NCBI GenBank assembly: GCA_964016885.1 | Contig: OZ024740.1 | Span: forward strand, 246,512,001 to 246,576,000 | DNA from: Eledone cirrhosa | Taxonomy: Eukaryota | DNA: 64,000 nt | Direction of reading: 5' to 3' | Shown: piece after piece, positions 587-22,361 of the stretch | How positions within the stretch are numbered: position 1 is the first letter of the stretch | How the letters are laid out: the number at the start of each line of letters is the position of its first letter | Made by a program: the position numbers and the translations under genes | The notes under the pieces: model-generated | What the model saw: the letters and a program-made list of their open reading frames with translations, nothing else | What the model was told of the DNA's origin: nothing | Database searches by the model: none

Positions 587-1533
587 ATTATTTACTTTAG
601 ATTATAAAAAATATTAAATTGAAAGAACTAAGAAAGATCTATTTAAACTCTTCAAAAACTTTAACCCAAGCATTATTTTAGATAAGAACACCATAAACCC
701 AATGCAAAACTTTTTTATGTTGATACCAATTCTAGCCATCCTAGATCTGTCTTAAACTCAATTATCAAAGGTGTATCTAATAGAATTAGTAATTTATCCT
801 ATAATGAAGACACATTTAACCATAATGTCCATTATTATAATGAAGCTCTATCACGTTCTGGCTATAAAGATAAAATTAAGTTTATGCCTAAAAAATCCTT
901 TACCAACTGCAAAAAACAACCTAATATTATTTCTCATAAAACATATCCAGAATAATGGTGCTGGTGTTATGGTGTGTAACAGTGGGTTAAATAATGATAT
1001 ACACCGATTTACAGTAATAATTTCTAAAGATAAGAGAAATATTATGAATAAAAAGAATAGTATTAACTAAACCAAACATCTGTAATACTAGATATAAAAC
1101 AGAAGATTATAATCATACGAACCCACTCACCAGTAACAAAATTAAAAAGAATAGAAGAAGGCTTGAATATTTTAATCCACTCTTCAATTTTAATGTTTCT
1201 ACTAATATACCTAGAGTATTCTTCTCTATTTTGGAAAAAAAATTCCCAATTGAGCATAAGTATCATAGTTTAATTAATAAGAATACCATTAAAATCTAAC
1301 TGGGAATGTGTTCGTAAAAGCTGCTTCGTATAGACCCCCAATAAATTCTGCAACCTTTGCCTGCTTGAATCCCATACTATTATCTTCTCCAAATCAGATT
1401 TATTAAATAGGAAATCTGAGATTTTTTCCGCTTGTAAACATATCAATCACCATTCTTTTCACTATTTTAAACCTAGTAACCAATCTATACCAATGTAGCT
1501 TATATGTATATGTATTTCTTTAGTAATATTAAT

Positions 1534-2259: not shown

Positions 2260-3260
2260 AACGAGCTACACTCATGAAGTTCAGAGACTTTTTCTTTCAG
2301 GCACTTTTAAATGACCTACGTAAGTGTCACCTTAATACACCCTTGATATGGTTATAATAAGCTAACATTCAAAATCTTTTTTTCCAGGTTGAAGTTTTGG
2401 GCCGTTGCAGCACTTTAAACACTACTCGTCATTACACGTCTTGTCACAACTGACTGGTTCCACAATGCAGTCGAGACATGAAGACAACTGGGATGCTCGA
2501 TATGCAATAACGTTTTGTGTCAAGCTTGGCAAGAACGCTGCAGAAACCTATAAAATAGTCAAAACTACTGACGGACTAACTTCATGTGCCGAGAGACTGC
2601 TTTTCGCTGGCACAAGAGATTCCACGAGGACAGGTTTGTACAACGTTTGTTCCCAGAGTACTTAATGAAGATCAAAGACAGAAGTGCGATGATGACAGCA
2701 GGGAGATAGTCGAGTGGATCGATTCGAATCCAAGTGCTCTTGAGTCTCTGGTAACTTATGACAAGAGCTGGGTCTACTGTTATGATCCAGACACCAAAAG
2801 ACTGAGTGCCCAGTTGAAATAGTCTGACTCCCTAAGACCCAAGAAGGCCAGGCAAAGCAGGTCCTCTGAGAAGCTCATGGTGATCTCATTCTCCGACAGC
2901 AAGGGCATCATCTATATGTACAAGGTCCCCCACGGCCAGACAGTCAACAAAGAGTACTATGTAGAGATTTTGAGGCAATTCAGAAAAGATTTCGTCGCAA
3001 GAGACCAGAACTCTTCAAGTCTGGTCAGTGGCATCTGCTCCAGGACAATGCCTCCTGCCACAAATCCATCCTGCTGACCAACTACTTGGCCAATATGGGG
3101 ATCAAGACTGTCCTTCATCCTCCCTACAGTCCAAACTTAGTCCCATGCAACTTCTGGATGTTCCCGAAACTGAAGGAGAAGCTCAGGGATATCCGCTTTG
3201 AGGATGTTGAGGAGATGAAAGAGACTGTGACTCCCTGACACCTTCACTTTGGAGGACTAC
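2260..3260 (+). mobile_element. Decayed mariner (Tc1/mariner, DD34D-type) transposon
   Basis: Fragments: RYAITFCVKLGKNAAETY (HTH), FVPRVL (WVPHEL-like), VTYDKSWVYCYDP, VPHGQTVNKEYYVEIL, WHLLQDNA, HPPYSPNLVPCNFWMFPKLKEKL (YSPDLAP motif, third D changed to N). Stops and frameshifts. Degenerate left TIR-like sequence at about 2260-2293; right end missing. Confidence 0.92.
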
Positions 3261-4785: not shown

Positions 4786-4865
4786 GTGGTAGAACACTGG
4801 AAGGTAATATCCGTAGTGGTAGAGCACTCAGCCCATGGGACGAGTTAGGTAGAAGTGGTTACACA

Positions 4866-4943
4866 ACCGAGAACAATTGTTTCACCTTAGCCGATCCTCA
4901 CCTCGTAATGAGGATCGGCTAAGGTGAAACAATTGGTCTCGGT
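4866..4943. repeat. Inverted repeat (35-bp arms, 1 mismatch, 8-nt loop) built from a decayed HHR
   Basis: Arms 4866-4900 and 4909-4943. Minus strand reads CGAG-GUGAGGA-UCGGCUAAGGU-GAAA-CAAUUG-UU-CUCG, a hammerhead with C3->G and a weak stem II. Confidence 0.8.
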
Positions 4944-4969
4944 ATGGTGAACTAACTGTTATGTAACCA

Positions 4970-5693: not shown

Positions 5694-7093
<1,400 letters not shown>

Positions 7094-7338: not shown

Positions 7339-7775
7339 TTAATTAAACATTCATTAATATATAGATCAGCATCACAATACAAATATCTAAACTTAGAATA
7401 GGTATCTAAACGAATAAAATCTAGTATAAAAAATAAAAGATGGACTAACTATTTATATATGCCTCACTAGGAATCAAGCGACCAATCTGGTAACTTGCTA
7501 TCCTAGCCAGTTCACAAGCAGCAACGTCAATTGGAATATCTATCTCCTACACATATAAGAACTGCTAGTTAAGAATTTCGGATATATGCTTACTGGTCGG
7601 CGAAGGGAATAACACGTATGACCGGTAACATATCAATGGATATTTGCATCTCGTTTGGATTTTTGTCTGAAGAGAACACGTATAACAACTGCCTTACGTC
7701 TTTGGAATGCGTATAACAAAATAAATAGGGATGTACAAATGAAACCGTCTTTCTTGTTTATTATATATATATGTC

Positions 7776-10895: not shown

Positions 10896-11193
10896 TTTTT
10901 TCTCTTTGGCGGGAAGGTAGTAGTACATTATCAGCTTTCGCCCCCTCACCAGATGGTCATAAGTAGACCGAATAGCCAACACTTGAGGGCGACCGACTAA
11001 GGTAGAAGATGCTAGATGGTCGGTCGTCCTCTTGTTTATGATTTTCAGCCCCATGGATTTTCTCTGAGATATTCCTTTGTTATATTTCGAATAGCTGATG
11101 ATATCACCGGATTCATACGGAACCCGGTCATTGAAATGATCATAGTATAATAAACCTTTCAAGGATTTACACAAGTCCAGCCTCCTGTTATTT

Positions 11194-12033: not shown

Positions 12034-12296
<263 letters not shown>

Positions 12297-12310
12297 TATA
12301 TATATATATA

Positions 12311-12343
<33 letters not shown>

Positions 12344-12346
12344 GTG

Positions 12347-12465
<119 letters not shown>

Positions 12466-12482
12466 ATATATATATATGTACA

Positions 12483-12526
<44 letters not shown>

Positions 12527-12586
12527 TATATGTATATATATATATATTTATATCTATATATATATTCATATATGTATATATATATA

Positions 12587-12618
<32 letters not shown>

Positions 12619-12636
12619 CATATGTATATATATATT

Positions 12637-12668
<32 letters not shown>

Positions 12669-12870
12669 TTCATATATGTATATATATATATATTTATATC
12701 TATATATATATATATATTTATATCTATATATATATATATATATTCATATATGTTTATATATATATTTATATCTATATATATATATATTTATATATATACA
12801 TATGAAATTTCGTTTCATTCTATTCCAATGTATCGTTTACGGTGCGCCTGGCCGACTGAACTCACTCGAT

Positions 12871-12918
12871 ATGCAAATTAGGCTGCTCAGCCGTTAATTT
12901 TCATAAGGAAAGTATATA
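12871..12918 (+). promoter_or_regulatory. Candidate compact snRNA-type promoter (octamer, PSE-like, TATA)
   Basis: ATGCAAAT at 12871-12878, TCAGCCGTTAATTT 8 nt later, TATATA at 12913-12918; nearly the same spacing at 14549-14597 (minus). Confidence 0.45.
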
Positions 12919-12952
12919 CTTTCGAACGTTCAACCATCTGGCAGAAGGGTAC

Positions 12953-12995
12953 ACGGTGCTGACGATAGCTAACAAGCTTGAAACTAGTACATCGT
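12953..12995 (+). ncRNA. Minimal type I hammerhead ribozyme
   Basis: ACGGUG-CUGACGA-UAGC-UAACAA-GCUU-GAAA-CUAG-UA^CAUCGU: 6-bp stem I, intact core, palindromic CUAG stem III. Confidence 0.85.
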
Positions 12996-13298
12996 TCCTG
13001 TGTCAGTGTTGAACAAAAAGGTGACGTGGTTGCCTTAACACCGTACGGCATAAATCAGGCTGTCCGTTTGTTTACAAACGAACAAAGCGAATGTTATAAT
13101 AAATATTAGCTAAACTGATACGTACATATATATATGTGTGCCTGTATGTATATATATATATATATACATGCTACTGTACGTCTGTATACATATATGTATG
13201 TACGTATACATACATACTTACATTTAAGTAAGTGCCGTACTAAGAGTGAAAAATGAAATTTCGTTTCATTCTATTCCAATTTATTGTATATATATATT

Positions 13299-13330
<32 letters not shown>

Positions 13331-13410
13331 TATTCATATATGTATATATATATATATTTATATCTATATATATATATATTCATATATGTATATATATATA
13401 TATTTATATC

Positions 13411-13441
<31 letters not shown>

Positions 13442-13522
13442 GTATATATATATTTATATATATATATATATATACATATATATATGTATATATATATTTA
13501 TATGTGTATATATATTTATATG

Positions 13523-13557
<35 letters not shown>

Positions 13558-13584
13558 GTATATATATATATATGTATATATATG

Positions 13585-13617
<33 letters not shown>

Positions 13618-13618
13618 G

Positions 13619-13679
<61 letters not shown>

Positions 13680-13695
13680 ATATATATATATATAT

Positions 13696-13741
<46 letters not shown>

Positions 13742-13827
13742 CATATATATAGATATATGTATGTATAGATATACATATATATAGATATACATATATATAG
13801 ATATACATATATATAGATATATGTATG

Positions 13828-13891
<64 letters not shown>

Positions 13892-13959
13892 CATACATAC
13901 ATATATCTATATATATGTATATCTATATATATGTATATCTATACATACATATATCTATA

Positions 13960-14011
<52 letters not shown>

Positions 14012-14019
14012 TACACATA

Positions 14020-14071
<52 letters not shown>

Positions 14072-14080
14072 CATATATAC

Positions 14081-14118
<38 letters not shown>

Positions 14119-14135
14119 TTATACATATATATACA

Positions 14136-14206
<71 letters not shown>

Positions 14207-14215
14207 ATATATACA

Positions 14216-14282
14216 CCGACGGCAGAGCTCAAGCCGTTTAGTCCAGAAATAGCCGTCGAAACGGCTTCAGCTCTGCCGTCGG
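14216..14282. repeat. GC-rich inverted repeat (24-bp arms, 1 mismatch) isolated in (TA)n
   Basis: Arms 14216-14239 and 14259-14282; 19-nt loop. Confidence 0.85.
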
Positions 14283-14295
14283 GGTCATACTTGTT

Positions 14296-14358
<63 letters not shown>

Positions 14359-14462
14359 CGTATCTCCAAAGAAATACGGTTTTAGGAAGCCGTAGCTACG
14401 CAAACACCGGGGGGGGGGGTTAACGCCCTCTGGTGCTGTCCAGCAGAAGCAAGGGAGACAAT

Positions 14463-14502
14463 CGTCTATGCATTTCAGGCTTAACTGGCCTTCGTCAGGA
14501 CG
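14463..14502 (-). ncRNA. Minimal type I hammerhead ribozyme
   Basis: CGUC-CUGACGA-AGGC-CAGUUAA-GCCU-GAAA-UGCA-UA^GACG: perfect 4-bp stems I and II, intact core, palindromic UGCA. Confidence 0.9.
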
Positions 14503-14548
14503 GTCCCTCCCACCGCTTGCGACTGCTGGACTAGAAGACAGGCGAGAA

Positions 14549-14597
14549 TATATACTTCTCTCGTCTGTGTAAATGAGGTGATTAATCTCATTTGCAT
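14549..14597 (-). promoter_or_regulatory. Candidate compact snRNA-type promoter (octamer, PSE-like, TATA)
   Basis: Minus strand: ATGCAAAT-GAGATTAA-TCACCTCATTTACA...AAGTATATA; octamer start to TATA start is 43 nt. Confidence 0.45.
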
Positions 14598-14614
14598 ATG
14601 AAGCTACATAATCC

Positions 14615-14702
<88 letters not shown>

Positions 14703-14727
14703 GTATATATATATGTATATATATATA

Positions 14728-14868
<141 letters not shown>

Positions 14869-14875
14869 GTATATA

Positions 14876-14907
<32 letters not shown>

Positions 14908-14995
14908 AAGGACGTAAAATAAGAAAATATTTCTTTAAAAAAAATTTTAAAAAAAAAAAAATTTTAAAAAAAATTTTTTTCTTACTTAAATTTTC

Positions 14996-15077
14996 ACTCC
15001 AACTAATTAGTTTCTGCAATGGGATAAAGACAGTTATGTAATCCAACTGTCGAGAATTCATTGCGTCATCAGGAAGT
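14996..15077 (-). ncRNA. Type I hammerhead ribozyme with long branched stem II (copy 1)
   Basis: ACUUC-CUGAUGA-C-GCAAUG..GACAGUU/AACUGUC..CAUUGC-A-GAAA-CUAAUUAG-UU^GGAGU; core complete; 8-nt palindromic stem III. Confidence 0.82.
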
Positions 15078-15577
15078 CTATTCTCAGTTAAGTCTCCAGG
15101 CAATGCGCGGACACTGGCGGCTCATATAAAAATAATAATAATTCGGTAGATCGAACAGCTTGCGAGGACTGAATTCTATGTACCGAAATTCTCACTGCTT
15201 CAAGTCAAATGGCCGATTCTAAAGAATCAATCACGTGACACAGAGGCTAGTTAGAAGGAATGGGATGGTAAGATGACTGACGCCTACTAACACCCCAAAA
15301 AAAAATTTTTTTAGAAGTGGTTTTGACAAGTTTGCTCGACAAATCAGTGATTTGGAGATAAATATAGATAATTTAATATATCAACTAACATAAGCGCACA
15401 GATGCACGCCCATGCCAGCAAATACACAGGTTATGTCATAGTACCTAGGTGGTTCAATGCAGGAGAATGCAGAACAATAATATAAAGGACGTAAAATAAG
15501 AAAATATTTCTTTAAAAAAAATTTAAAAAAAAAAAAAAAAAAATTTTAAAAAAAATTTTTTTCTTACTTAAATTTTC

Positions 15578-15659
15578 ACTCCAACTAATTAGTTTCTGCA
15601 ATGGGATAAAGACAGTTATGTAATCCAACTGTCGAGAATTCATTGCGTCATCAGGAAGT
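15578..15659 (-). ncRNA. Type I hammerhead ribozyme with long branched stem II (copy 2)
   Basis: Identical to 14996-15077. The third copy (16160-16230) is truncated inside the CUGAUGA core. Confidence 0.82.
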
Positions 15660-16228
15660 CTATTCTCAGTTAAGTCTCCAGGCAATGCGCGGACACTGGC
15701 GGCTCATATAAAAATAATAATAATTCGGTAGATCGAACAGCTTGCGAGGACTGAATTCTATGTACCGAAATTCTCACTGCTTCAAGTCAAATGGCCGATT
15801 CTAAAGAATCAATCACGTGACACAGAGGCTAGTTAGAAGGAATGGGATGGTAAGATGACTGACGCCTACTAACACCCCAAAAAAAAAATTTTTTTAGAAG
15901 TGGTTTTGACAAGTTTGCTCGACAAATCAGTGATTTGGAGATAAATATAGATAATTTAATATATCAACTAACATAAGCGCACAGATGCACGCCCATGCCA
16001 GCAAATACACAGGTTATGTCATAGTACCTAGGTGGTTCAATGCAGGAGAATGCAGAACAATAATATAAAGGACGTAAAATAAGAAAATATTTCTTTAAAA
16101 AAAATTTTAAAAAAAAAAAAAAAAATTTTAAAAAAAATTTTTTTCTTACTTAAATTTTCACTCCAACTAATTAGTTTCTGCAATGGGATAAAGACAGTTA
16201 TGTAATCCAACTGTCGAGAATTCATTGC

Positions 16229-16266
<38 letters not shown>

Positions 16267-16476: not shown

Positions 16477-16930
16477 GTTTATCCCGGGTTCAATCGGGGG
16501 TAAGCACAGTAAGTAAGGTACTCAATACGTAGCAGAGTATAAATATTTAATATAGAAATGGCTTCTACAGGACTAGAACTGTTTCATGCGGTAGAAATCA
16601 TCAGGAGAACCGACATACGTTCTACATGTCTGAGCCATTTAGTTGATGCCAGCATCATGTACATTAAAATATGACCATCATCATTTCACTGAGGATTTTT
16701 CTGTGCCTAAACCTATTTCTCTGGTTGTTAAAAACCTCAAAGGTCTGAGGGTCGGTTTCATGCGATCTATTTTTCAATATATAAAATGGAAACACAGTCT
16801 GTGGAGGAGCTTTGTATGGAAGCTCAGATAGTAAAAACTGCACGGCATTGCTTGCTTTTGCCTCAGTTTGTGCTTCACGGTTCATTATAGGGTCTCTTCA
16901 GCGCAACAACAAACCTACCACACAACTAAA
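16477..16930 (-). mobile_element. Penelope-type 3' fragment (GIY-YIG C-terminus plus decayed HHR)
   Basis: Minus-strand translation SHETDPQTFEVFNNQRNRFRHRKILSEMM..FNVHDAGIN resembles the GHxxD...RKILE...LNxDxG end of PLE endonucleases. CUGAUGA-N12-GAAAC at 16604-16581. Confidence 0.55.
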
Positions 16931-17477: not shown

Positions 17478-18110
<633 letters not shown>

Positions 18111-18629: not shown

Positions 18630-18994
18630 TATAAGAATAACATTAAGACAGATGATGTGATTACATAAAACGTTTATTCGTTCTAATTATTTCTATGGCT
18701 CCCCTTATGCAATCCAAGATGCAGTTCTTACATTTGTTGCTGGAATAGGACCTATTTCTTCAGATGAATATTCGTTTATGTGATATGCTGCGGGCACGAA
18801 AGAAGAATAACATCTTTTTGCCTGCAGCATATCACGTAAACGAATATTCATGTGAAGAAATCGCTCCCATTCCAGCAACACATGTAAAACCTCCACCTTG
18901 GATTACATAAGAGTAGTCATAGAAACCATTGAAATAATTATAATGAATAAACGCTTTATGTAATCACATCATCTTTCTTGATGTTATTCTTATA
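18630..18994. repeat. Imperfect fold-back palindrome of about 365 bp
   Basis: Arms pair along nearly their whole length around a centre at about 18807, e.g. GATGATGTGATTACATAAA / TTTATGTAATCACATCATC and ATGAATATTCGTTTATGTGATATGCTGC / GCAGCATATCACGTAAACGAATATTCAT. Confidence 0.85.
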
Positions 18995-19275: not shown

Positions 19276-19320
19276 GCTTACAATGTTTCTTCCTTACGTA
19301 ACCGTAGGATTCGTCAGAGC
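19276..19320 (-). ncRNA. Minimal type I hammerhead ribozyme at the 3' end of a (TA)n-embedded element
   Basis: GCU-CUGACGA-A-UCCUACG-GUUA-CGUAAGGA-A-GAAAC-AUU-GUA^AGC; followed by AATAAA, a tail of about 40 nt and (TA)n. Confidence 0.75.
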
Positions 19321-22227: not shown

Positions 22228-22231
<4 letters not shown>

Positions 22232-22289
22232 AAGTAAAAGCGAAGTAGTTTCAGATGTTCATCTGAAACTACTTCGCTTTTACTTATTC
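22228..22289. repeat. Perfect palindrome, 30-bp arms, 2-nt loop, in (TA)n
   Basis: GAATAAGTAAAAGCGAAGTAGTTTCAGATG-TT-CATCTGAAACTACTTCGCTTTTACTTATTC. Confidence 0.95.
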
Positions 22290-22361
22290 GATATTTACTC
22301 CGTCACTCCTATGTGGAAAAAGTATGTTGAGTGCTTGAATTGAATTGCATCAATATTTACC

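Follow-up and report, generated by a model that had tools for sequence, protein, structure and literature searches.

Two hammerhead-bearing insertions in a 64,000-nucleotide stretch of the Eledone cirrhosa genome, the whole of which is referred to here as the window, are likely to be non-LTR retrozymes, and in each of them the ribozyme lies behind a cassette of an octamer, a TCA box and a TATA box that is probably an snRNA-type promoter and appears, on balance, to be read by RNA polymerase II (Pol II). The families to which these insertions belong, A and B, have thousands of copies each and are probably moved by Penelope-type transposons. The hammerhead retrozyme class is already known; the cassette appears to be new in invertebrate retrozymes, for which no octamer-box-TATA arrangement was found in the open-access literature as searched by titles and summaries. 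A sequence-only reading of this DNA had proposed self-promoting ribozyme retroelements whose promoter is kept by a tandem structure, and the genomic copies agree with it in that they form ribozyme-bearing families with the promoter inside the tandem unit.

Both insertions lie in a (TA)n-rich tract, and their boxes and hammerheads were each recovered at the positions and spacings that this reading had given them. The features of A and of its setting are as follows.

12153-14907, no strand: (TA)n-rich tract, the shared target of insertions A and B and of a third, palindromic one; outside either element
12802-13284, plus strand: family A insertion, one tandem-repeat unit with 28 nt of redundancy, truncated at its 5′ end
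12802-12818, plus strand: short hairpin sequence that recurs at 13253-13269 as the unit redundancy
12871-12878, plus strand: octamer, within the extended octamer (TATGCAAAT followed by KAG) at 12870-12881
12887-12891, plus strand: TCAGC box, matching four of the five letters of the TCAGT of host U1, U2 and RNase P
12913-12918, plus strand: TATA box, with TATATA beginning 42 nt after the octamer start
12943, plus strand: start predicted from the TATA position (GC/AG)
12930-13015, plus strand: type I hammerhead with extended stem I, core at 12959-12965, predicted cut after 12989 (GUA)

The 3′ end of A, at 13284, is the preferred site of the family, about 37 nt before the next octamer, and (TA)n then follows. 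Its 28-nt end repeat was considered as a target-site duplication and rejected, being the redundancy of the tandem unit. The TCAGC box sits at -56 when the TATA box is placed at -30. Element B is made up as follows.

14356-14611, minus strand: family B insertion, part of a unit of approximately 324-330 nt, with its 3′ end at 14356 and (TA)n beyond
14610-14620, plus strand: inverted 11-nt piece of the B unit, derived from the T-run site of the unit, at the 5′ junction with (TA)n next
14597-14590, minus strand: octamer, within an extended octamer at 14587-14598
14581-14577, minus strand: TCACC box, with three of the five letters of TCAGT, at -57 when the TATA box is at -30
14554-14549, minus strand: TATA box, with TATATA beginning 43 nt after the octamer start
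14524, minus strand: start predicted from the TATA position (GC/AG)
14437-14528, minus strand: type I hammerhead with extended stem I, core at 14498-14492, predicted cut after 14467 (AUA)

The inverted 11-nt piece at the 5′ junction of B is a 5′ inversion. A single composite element made of A and B was considered and rejected; the two are separate insertions, and their families occur together in only three of 60 loci (the window, L032 and L038).

The genome searched comprises 3.0 Gb and returned 1,860 similarity candidates for A and 2,493 for B, of which 40 each were scored. The three-box cassette pattern had 22,714 exact matches and its reversed control none, so that the cassette is not a product of chance. 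A pattern of extended octamer, TATA and the ribozyme core CTGANGA had 17,753 matches against none in the control, the first 100 listed all being of family A or B, while a pattern avoiding these two families gave 6,840, the first 100 of which comprised 95 of family C, two of D, two of E and one A variant. With F, this brings to four the further hammerhead-bearing families that have the same octamer as A and B, and to six the families in total. The additional families are found at the following loci.

L235-L264 and L289-L308 (for example G000:C1:5738350-5751969): family C, related to A, with about 6,800 pattern matches and arrays of about 30 units
L265 and L266: family D, two old copies with the octamer upstream, U6-type spacing and a degenerate ribozyme
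L267 and L268: family E, a hammerhead behind the same octamer
L047 (minus strand) and L126: family F, with exactly the host U1/U2 box TCAGT; the octamer region is partly duplicated in L047

Complete units measure 422-508 nt in A (28 distinct units), 461-470 nt in C (40 units) and 324 nt in B (one unit). Units of 324-508 nt, putatively non-coding, occur as tandem arrays ranging from monomers to multimers, and copies are also found as head-to-head pairs.

A and B had been described as unrelated and without similarity outside the boxes. Direct BLAST of the window copies returned the boxes and short words only; the body of one A subfamily (A2), however, aligns weakly with that of B (score 33, null 18.4 ± 3.0, p = 0.003; one of eight pairs tested, five of them non-significant), and the absence of relationship is therefore not established. 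The non-significant pairs were window-type A and B (p = 0.33), C and B (p = 0.20), A and F (p = 0.08), B and F (p = 0.40) and C and F (p = 0.19). As A and C are clearly homologous and A2 weakly resembles B, the six families may lack independent origins. Short words recur approximately 50-90 nt after the ribozyme cut, namely TACGGCTT in A2 and B and TGTTTRCA in A, B, C and F, and may be relics of common descent, or else mark a site for a protein or a promoter element located distally.

Constrained folding gives both A and B a full core and a stem II, with a stem III that is short and palindromic and a stem I that is long, interrupted and located about 41 nt after the TATA box in A, where the base of stem II is a U-U, and 52 nt after it in B. 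The core and stems I-III are likewise present in C and F by pattern and constrained folding. Rfam gave no match in the window at the gathering threshold and, at E ≤ 10, returned TA-driven miRNA-type hits with no hammerhead among them, so that it is from the conserved core and stems that the ribozymes are called. The type I form has been described for animal repeats (PMC4209133; PMC7229834). Circular units are predicted to fold at z of -7 to -11 relative to doublet shuffles (n = 5 units). Other repeats of the window contain further hammerhead-like cores, all without ATGCAAAT upstream.

19282-19317, minus strand: hammerhead-like core
11095-11141, plus strand: hammerhead-like core
16577-16604, minus strand: hammerhead-like core

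Two more octamers with nearby TATA-like words, at 6717-6737 and 7642-7649, are also located in other repeats, and no adjoining ribozyme core was found for them.

The ends of the copies carry a footprint of their insertion. Among 70 terminal units of A, 27 end at -34 to -43 and 29 at -84 to -105 before the next octamer, nine end elsewhere and five are not true ends; the 35 terminal units of C include 18 and 15 at two preferred 3′ end sites, and of the 40 of B, nine end at the T run and 27 at a point about 40 nt before it. The preferred 3′ ends of all three families mostly have (TA)n next, and none of their terminal units ends exactly at the ribozyme cut. A rough motif test scored plus-strand pieces that have a minus-strand piece immediately on their 5′ side, and found them at 21 of 57 loci for A, 17 of 34 for B and 12 of 23 for C. 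Such 5′ inversions are a trait of Penelope-like elements (PLEs). Three traits of PLE mobilization, namely fixed internal 3′ ends, AT-rich targets and 5′ inversions, are present in the families. An anole Penelope element has two internal reverse-transcription start sites and AT-rich cleavage (Frangieh et al., PMC11167929), its start site being non-homologous to the target (PMC11167929), whereas the ends of A, B and C fall on TA-like words. PLEs further resemble the families described here in having a type I hammerhead and two internal 3′ end sites, in occurring as tandem copies and in their AT-rich targets (PMC11167929; PMC4209133), but the present units have putatively no coding frame and no detected homology to the terminal repeats of host PLEs. 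One PLE candidate lies in the window itself.

600-1500, plus strand: decayed Penelope-like reverse transcriptase/endonuclease fragment, interrupted by SINE-like copies

Used as a query, its 686-952 piece found at least 28,756 candidate matches in the genome, and the copies fetched, which we take from their motifs to be PLEs, have frames of up to 701 residues; Pfam reported no family over the cut-off for five frames of the decayed piece in the window. A comparison with 31 PLE loci revealed no terminal sequence in common with A or B; these loci represent one PLE group and are mostly broken, so that the partner PLE is a postulated one.

Other parts of the window are repetitive as well. Positions 14216-14298 hold a long hairpin, the inverted end of another dispersed family, which is followed by (TA)n and recurs in many of the loci fetched. 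Short insertions that form near-perfect palindromes, most of them beside TA tracts, occur at 4865-4945, 17940-18110, 18635-18990, 22228-22290 and 1560-1635 and are probably 5′-inverted truncated copies of other elements. A decayed transposase of the Tc1/mariner type is what 2440-3240 (plus strand) presumably resembles, 14907-16231 carries about 2.3 tandem copies of a unit of about 580 nt with A/T-run palindromes, and 28024-61114 is a 33-kb satellite with a 34-nt unit (about 973 copies, 95% matches).

The cassette was compared with the promoters of U6 (three independent loci), U6atac, MRP, RNase P and nine distinct U1/U2 genes (five U1 and four U2) of the host (loci L121 at G000:C24:12936134, L061, L062, L063, L122, L130, L199-L204, L131-L134 and L229), whose polymerase classes are assumed to be the usual ones. 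Loci without the cassette (14 of U6 and 11 of the 12 viewed of U6atac) were treated as pseudogenes and dropped, near-identical array copies were collapsed, and a single U2 copy that carries a deletion and lacks a TCA box was excluded. Some copies in the U6 tandem array at G000:C19:31780605-31840331 have a SINE-like insertion that separates the TATA box from the gene. Host U6 (three loci), U6atac and MRP have at -76 to -78 the same extended octamer that is seen in A, together with a TATA box at -30 and no TCA box, and share both the extended octamer and a G-TATA with the elements. In each of the nine U1/U2 promoters, TCA(G/A)T lies at -56 to -58, a TATA-like stretch is found near -30, and there is no adjacent octamer; it is present in five of the six host RNA polymerase III (Pol III) promoters and in all six element families. 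RNase P, with TCAGT at -62 (start taken from the P1 helix), a TATA box at -30 and no octamer, alone links the two host classes. The TCA box, initially called PSE-like, does resemble a real PSE core of the host, the TCAGT of U1, U2 and RNase P. A TATA-like box near -30 is shared by U1 and U2, and in this host a TATA box is therefore not diagnostic of Pol III. With TATA at -30, both window copies are predicted to start GC/A, like four of the five host U1 promoters; in one A subfamily the ribozyme lies 8 nt closer to the TATA box, and GC/AG is therefore not always at +1.

The box-to-TATA distance is 24-28 nt in U1/U2 (22-29 nt with other TA registers) and 30-32 nt in the six Pol III-class genes, for five of which (the three U6, U6atac and MRP) the ‘box’ is the position 16 nt from the octamer start and not a TCAGT. 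The elements measure 26 nt in A, 27 nt in B, 25 nt in C, 24 nt in E (34 nt in one E copy, through an A-run), 23-27 nt in F and 31 nt in D. On a matrix of the nine U1/U2 boxes, family F scores 9.5-12.5 bits (0.025% of null), A (-6.3 bits; 5.0% of null as high) and B (-5.8 bits; 4.4%) are weak matches, and C (39% of null) and D (44%) show no match above background. On the Pol III matrix the scores of A and B drop further (-11 and -7, respectively). In insects the snRNA promoters of both classes are bipartite, with the downstream box at position 30 for Pol II and 34 for Pol III (PMC1761439), and this 4-nt offset is that which separates the U1/U2 and Pol III genes of the present host. The sequence of the PSE is the main determinant of the polymerase in flies (PMC1761439), whereas here the Pol III genes have an adjacent octamer and little conserved PSE. 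A brief literature search found no description of a U1/U2-versus-U6 promoter grammar for molluscs.

The cassette had at first been assigned to type 3 Pol III promoters, an assignment that is doubtful, given a box-to-TATA spacing that groups with U1/U2, an undiagnostic TATA box and the T runs of full units. The accompanying remark that there is no T4 run applies to the two truncated window copies, in the case of A owing to a T>A change at 12839 that is absent from nearly all contigs of run X1, but fails for the families: between the predicted start and the next octamer, all of the A units (28), C units (40) and B linkers (12) that were compared have a run of at least T4, and 12, 39 and 11 of these, respectively, have runs of T5-T7. 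Host Pol III genes terminate in T runs, and such runs in full units would hinder copying of the next promoter by Pol III. New insertions include a copy of the promoter, so the RNA that serves as template has to extend across these runs. The 3′ box of host U1/U2 genes is A-rich and ends in CAGA; the best candidates for a box of this type in complete units reach at most 3.5 bits, compared with 5.5-21.8 bits for the host boxes. T runs that are crossed, together with the lack of a host-type 3′ box, favour read-through by Pol II, which we regard as the likelier reader of the cassette.

Transcription by Pol III is the less probable but still serious alternative, in which the same retrozymes would have a type 3 (U6-like) promoter and occasional read-through of T runs would yield the promoter-containing RNA. 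It is kept in play by the octamer, which in this host marks Pol III genes only, and by the match of extended octamer and G-TATA to U6, U6atac and MRP. Consistent with it are also the one preferred 3′ end at or just past the T run, the U6 spacing of 31 nt retained in the two old copies of D, the 16 of 28 A units that have T4 at most and the U1/U2 matrix scores, weak for A and B and at background for C and D; schistosome hammerhead repeats have been reported as Pol III transcripts (PMC6765202), and in vertebrates the TATA box is dominant for Pol III (PMC1761439). Against this alternative, the octamer-to-TATA distance of 42-43 nt in A and B differs from the 46-48 nt of all five octamer-bearing host genes, arrays exceed 25 units in spite of their T5-T7 runs, and the Pol II matrix gives A and B better scores than the Pol III matrix does. 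The 3′ ends were considered as sites of Pol III termination and rejected, since the -37 end persists in seven loci of an A subfamily that have no T run there.

It seems improbable that the cassette is a plain TATA promoter of Pol II which, together with a POU enhancer site, came from a Penelope terminal repeat, and that its TCA box is not a SNAPc site. By matrix score A and B have a weak box and C and D none, PLE terminal repeats contain promoters (PMC6765202), and vertebrate retrozymes are derived from PLE terminal repeats according to a 2026 preprint, in the relevant text of which the word ‘promoter’ occurs 0 times (bioRxiv 10.64898/2026.07.22.740005). However, the register of the box is fixed in A, B, E and F, where 16 nt separate it from the octamer start and its distance to the TATA box is that of U1/U2, with the TCAGT of F an exact match, and no octamer was found upstream of the other-type hammerhead hits in the fetched loci.

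The boxes are preserved across copies and subfamilies. Among ribozyme-anchored copies with homologous upstream DNA (11 of 94 A and four of 42 B copies, lacking it, were left out), the 83 of A include 75 with the exact octamer, 77 with the exact TCA box and 80 with the exact TATA box, and the 38 of B include 33, 30 and 32, respectively; many of these loci had been selected for matching the cassette pattern or resembling a window copy, which biases the sample. Divergence in A is 0.011-0.029 per site in the boxes and 0.055-0.17 per site in the flanks upstream of the ribozyme, a contrast that is not seen in B. Run X1, which was not cassette-selected, had no variant at ≥10% within the three boxes of A and none at ≥5% in those of B, save for the base before the TATA box; of the other contig runs, X5 covered no part of A and X4-X6 no part of B. 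This base, the G of AAGTATATA, is variable in B, where C stands at 14555 in about two-thirds of run X1 depth, and is present in 60 of 65 matches in fetched genomic loci. That the boxes are leftovers of common descent or chance with no promoter role, in copies spread as DNA satellites or by passive read-through, is very unlikely: the homology of A and C, the weak A2-B similarity and a sample partly selected for an intact cassette speak for it, but the boxes persist across families whose bodies do not align, diverge less than their flanks in A, where run X1 lacks frequent variants, and belong to dispersed insertions with fixed 3′ ends and inversions.

From the boxes, spacings, copies, arrays, inversions, 3′ ends and host geometry we infer a cycle of transcription, cleavage, circles and a partner element. 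In tandem arrays, transcription would start about 30 nt after the TATA box and continue through the next unit, as is proposed from the lack of a host-type 3′ box. The hammerheads, which probably act as dimers in view of their short palindromic stem III, would release unit-length RNA carrying the next promoter, and this RNA could circularize. A Penelope-like reverse transcriptase/endonuclease would then use two internal AT-rich priming sites to copy the RNA into (TA)n targets, giving rise thereby to arrays and 5′ inversions. The window copies, with one ribozyme each, are likely to be dead-end insertions. More speculatively, the host may sort its snRNA promoters between Pol II and Pol III by 4-6 nt of spacing, and the retrozymes may have captured a U6-type octamer and shortened its spacing to the U1/U2 value, although we consider this doubtful; if true, the switch to Pol II lets retrozymes read through T runs and copy their own promoter, and D is the unswitched state.

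Newt satellite 2 has an octamer/PSE layout. This tandem hammerhead repeat, described by Coats, Zhang and Epstein in 1994, has an internal snRNA-type promoter from which it is reportedly transcribed by Pol II (PMC2220036; PMC6765202), and is similar in this to A and B; unlike it, the present case involves six families in a genome of invertebrate type, and their cassette has a clear TATA box and an octamer placed in the register of host Pol III genes. The Sm-alpha hammerhead SINE-like repeats of schistosomes also have a promoter in the unit, upstream of the hammerhead, that is kept by the tandem arrangement (PMC6765202), but they are reported as Pol III transcripts (PMC6765202), whereas the promoter of the units described here is an octamer-box-TATA cassette that lies upstream and is spaced as in U1/U2. 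Metazoan non-LTR retrozymes (Cervera and de la Pena 2020, PMC7229834) are, like the putatively non-coding A and B, low-GC, non-coding tandem units with a type I hammerhead and a short palindromic stem III; they have strongly self-paired predicted circles, coexist with PLEs, in one axolotl family show the U-U at the base of stem II that is found in A, and have been reported in a mollusc, the mussel (PMC7229834). Their units measure 170-400 nt compared with 422-508 nt for A and C, and RNA was reported for them (PMC7229834), whereas the RNA of A and B is a predicted one. In the pertinent passages of that paper no endogenous promoter is named, both mentions of a promoter referring to T7, and the two-site 3′ ends and 5′ inversions seen here are absent (PMC7229834). 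A paper on octopus repeats, judged by its terms, mentions neither ribozymes nor promoters (PMC13282606).

This genome offers testable answers to the questions of what transcribes and what moves animal retrozymes. To the former it contributes a defined three-box promoter common to six families, with predicted start sites, and to the latter insertion footprints, in the form of two internal 3′ ends, inversions and TA targets, that fit a Penelope mechanism. The grammar sketched for host U1/U2 versus U6 promoters is useful for building guide-RNA promoters, and the retrozymes would extend the arrangement of newt satellite 2 beyond amphibians.
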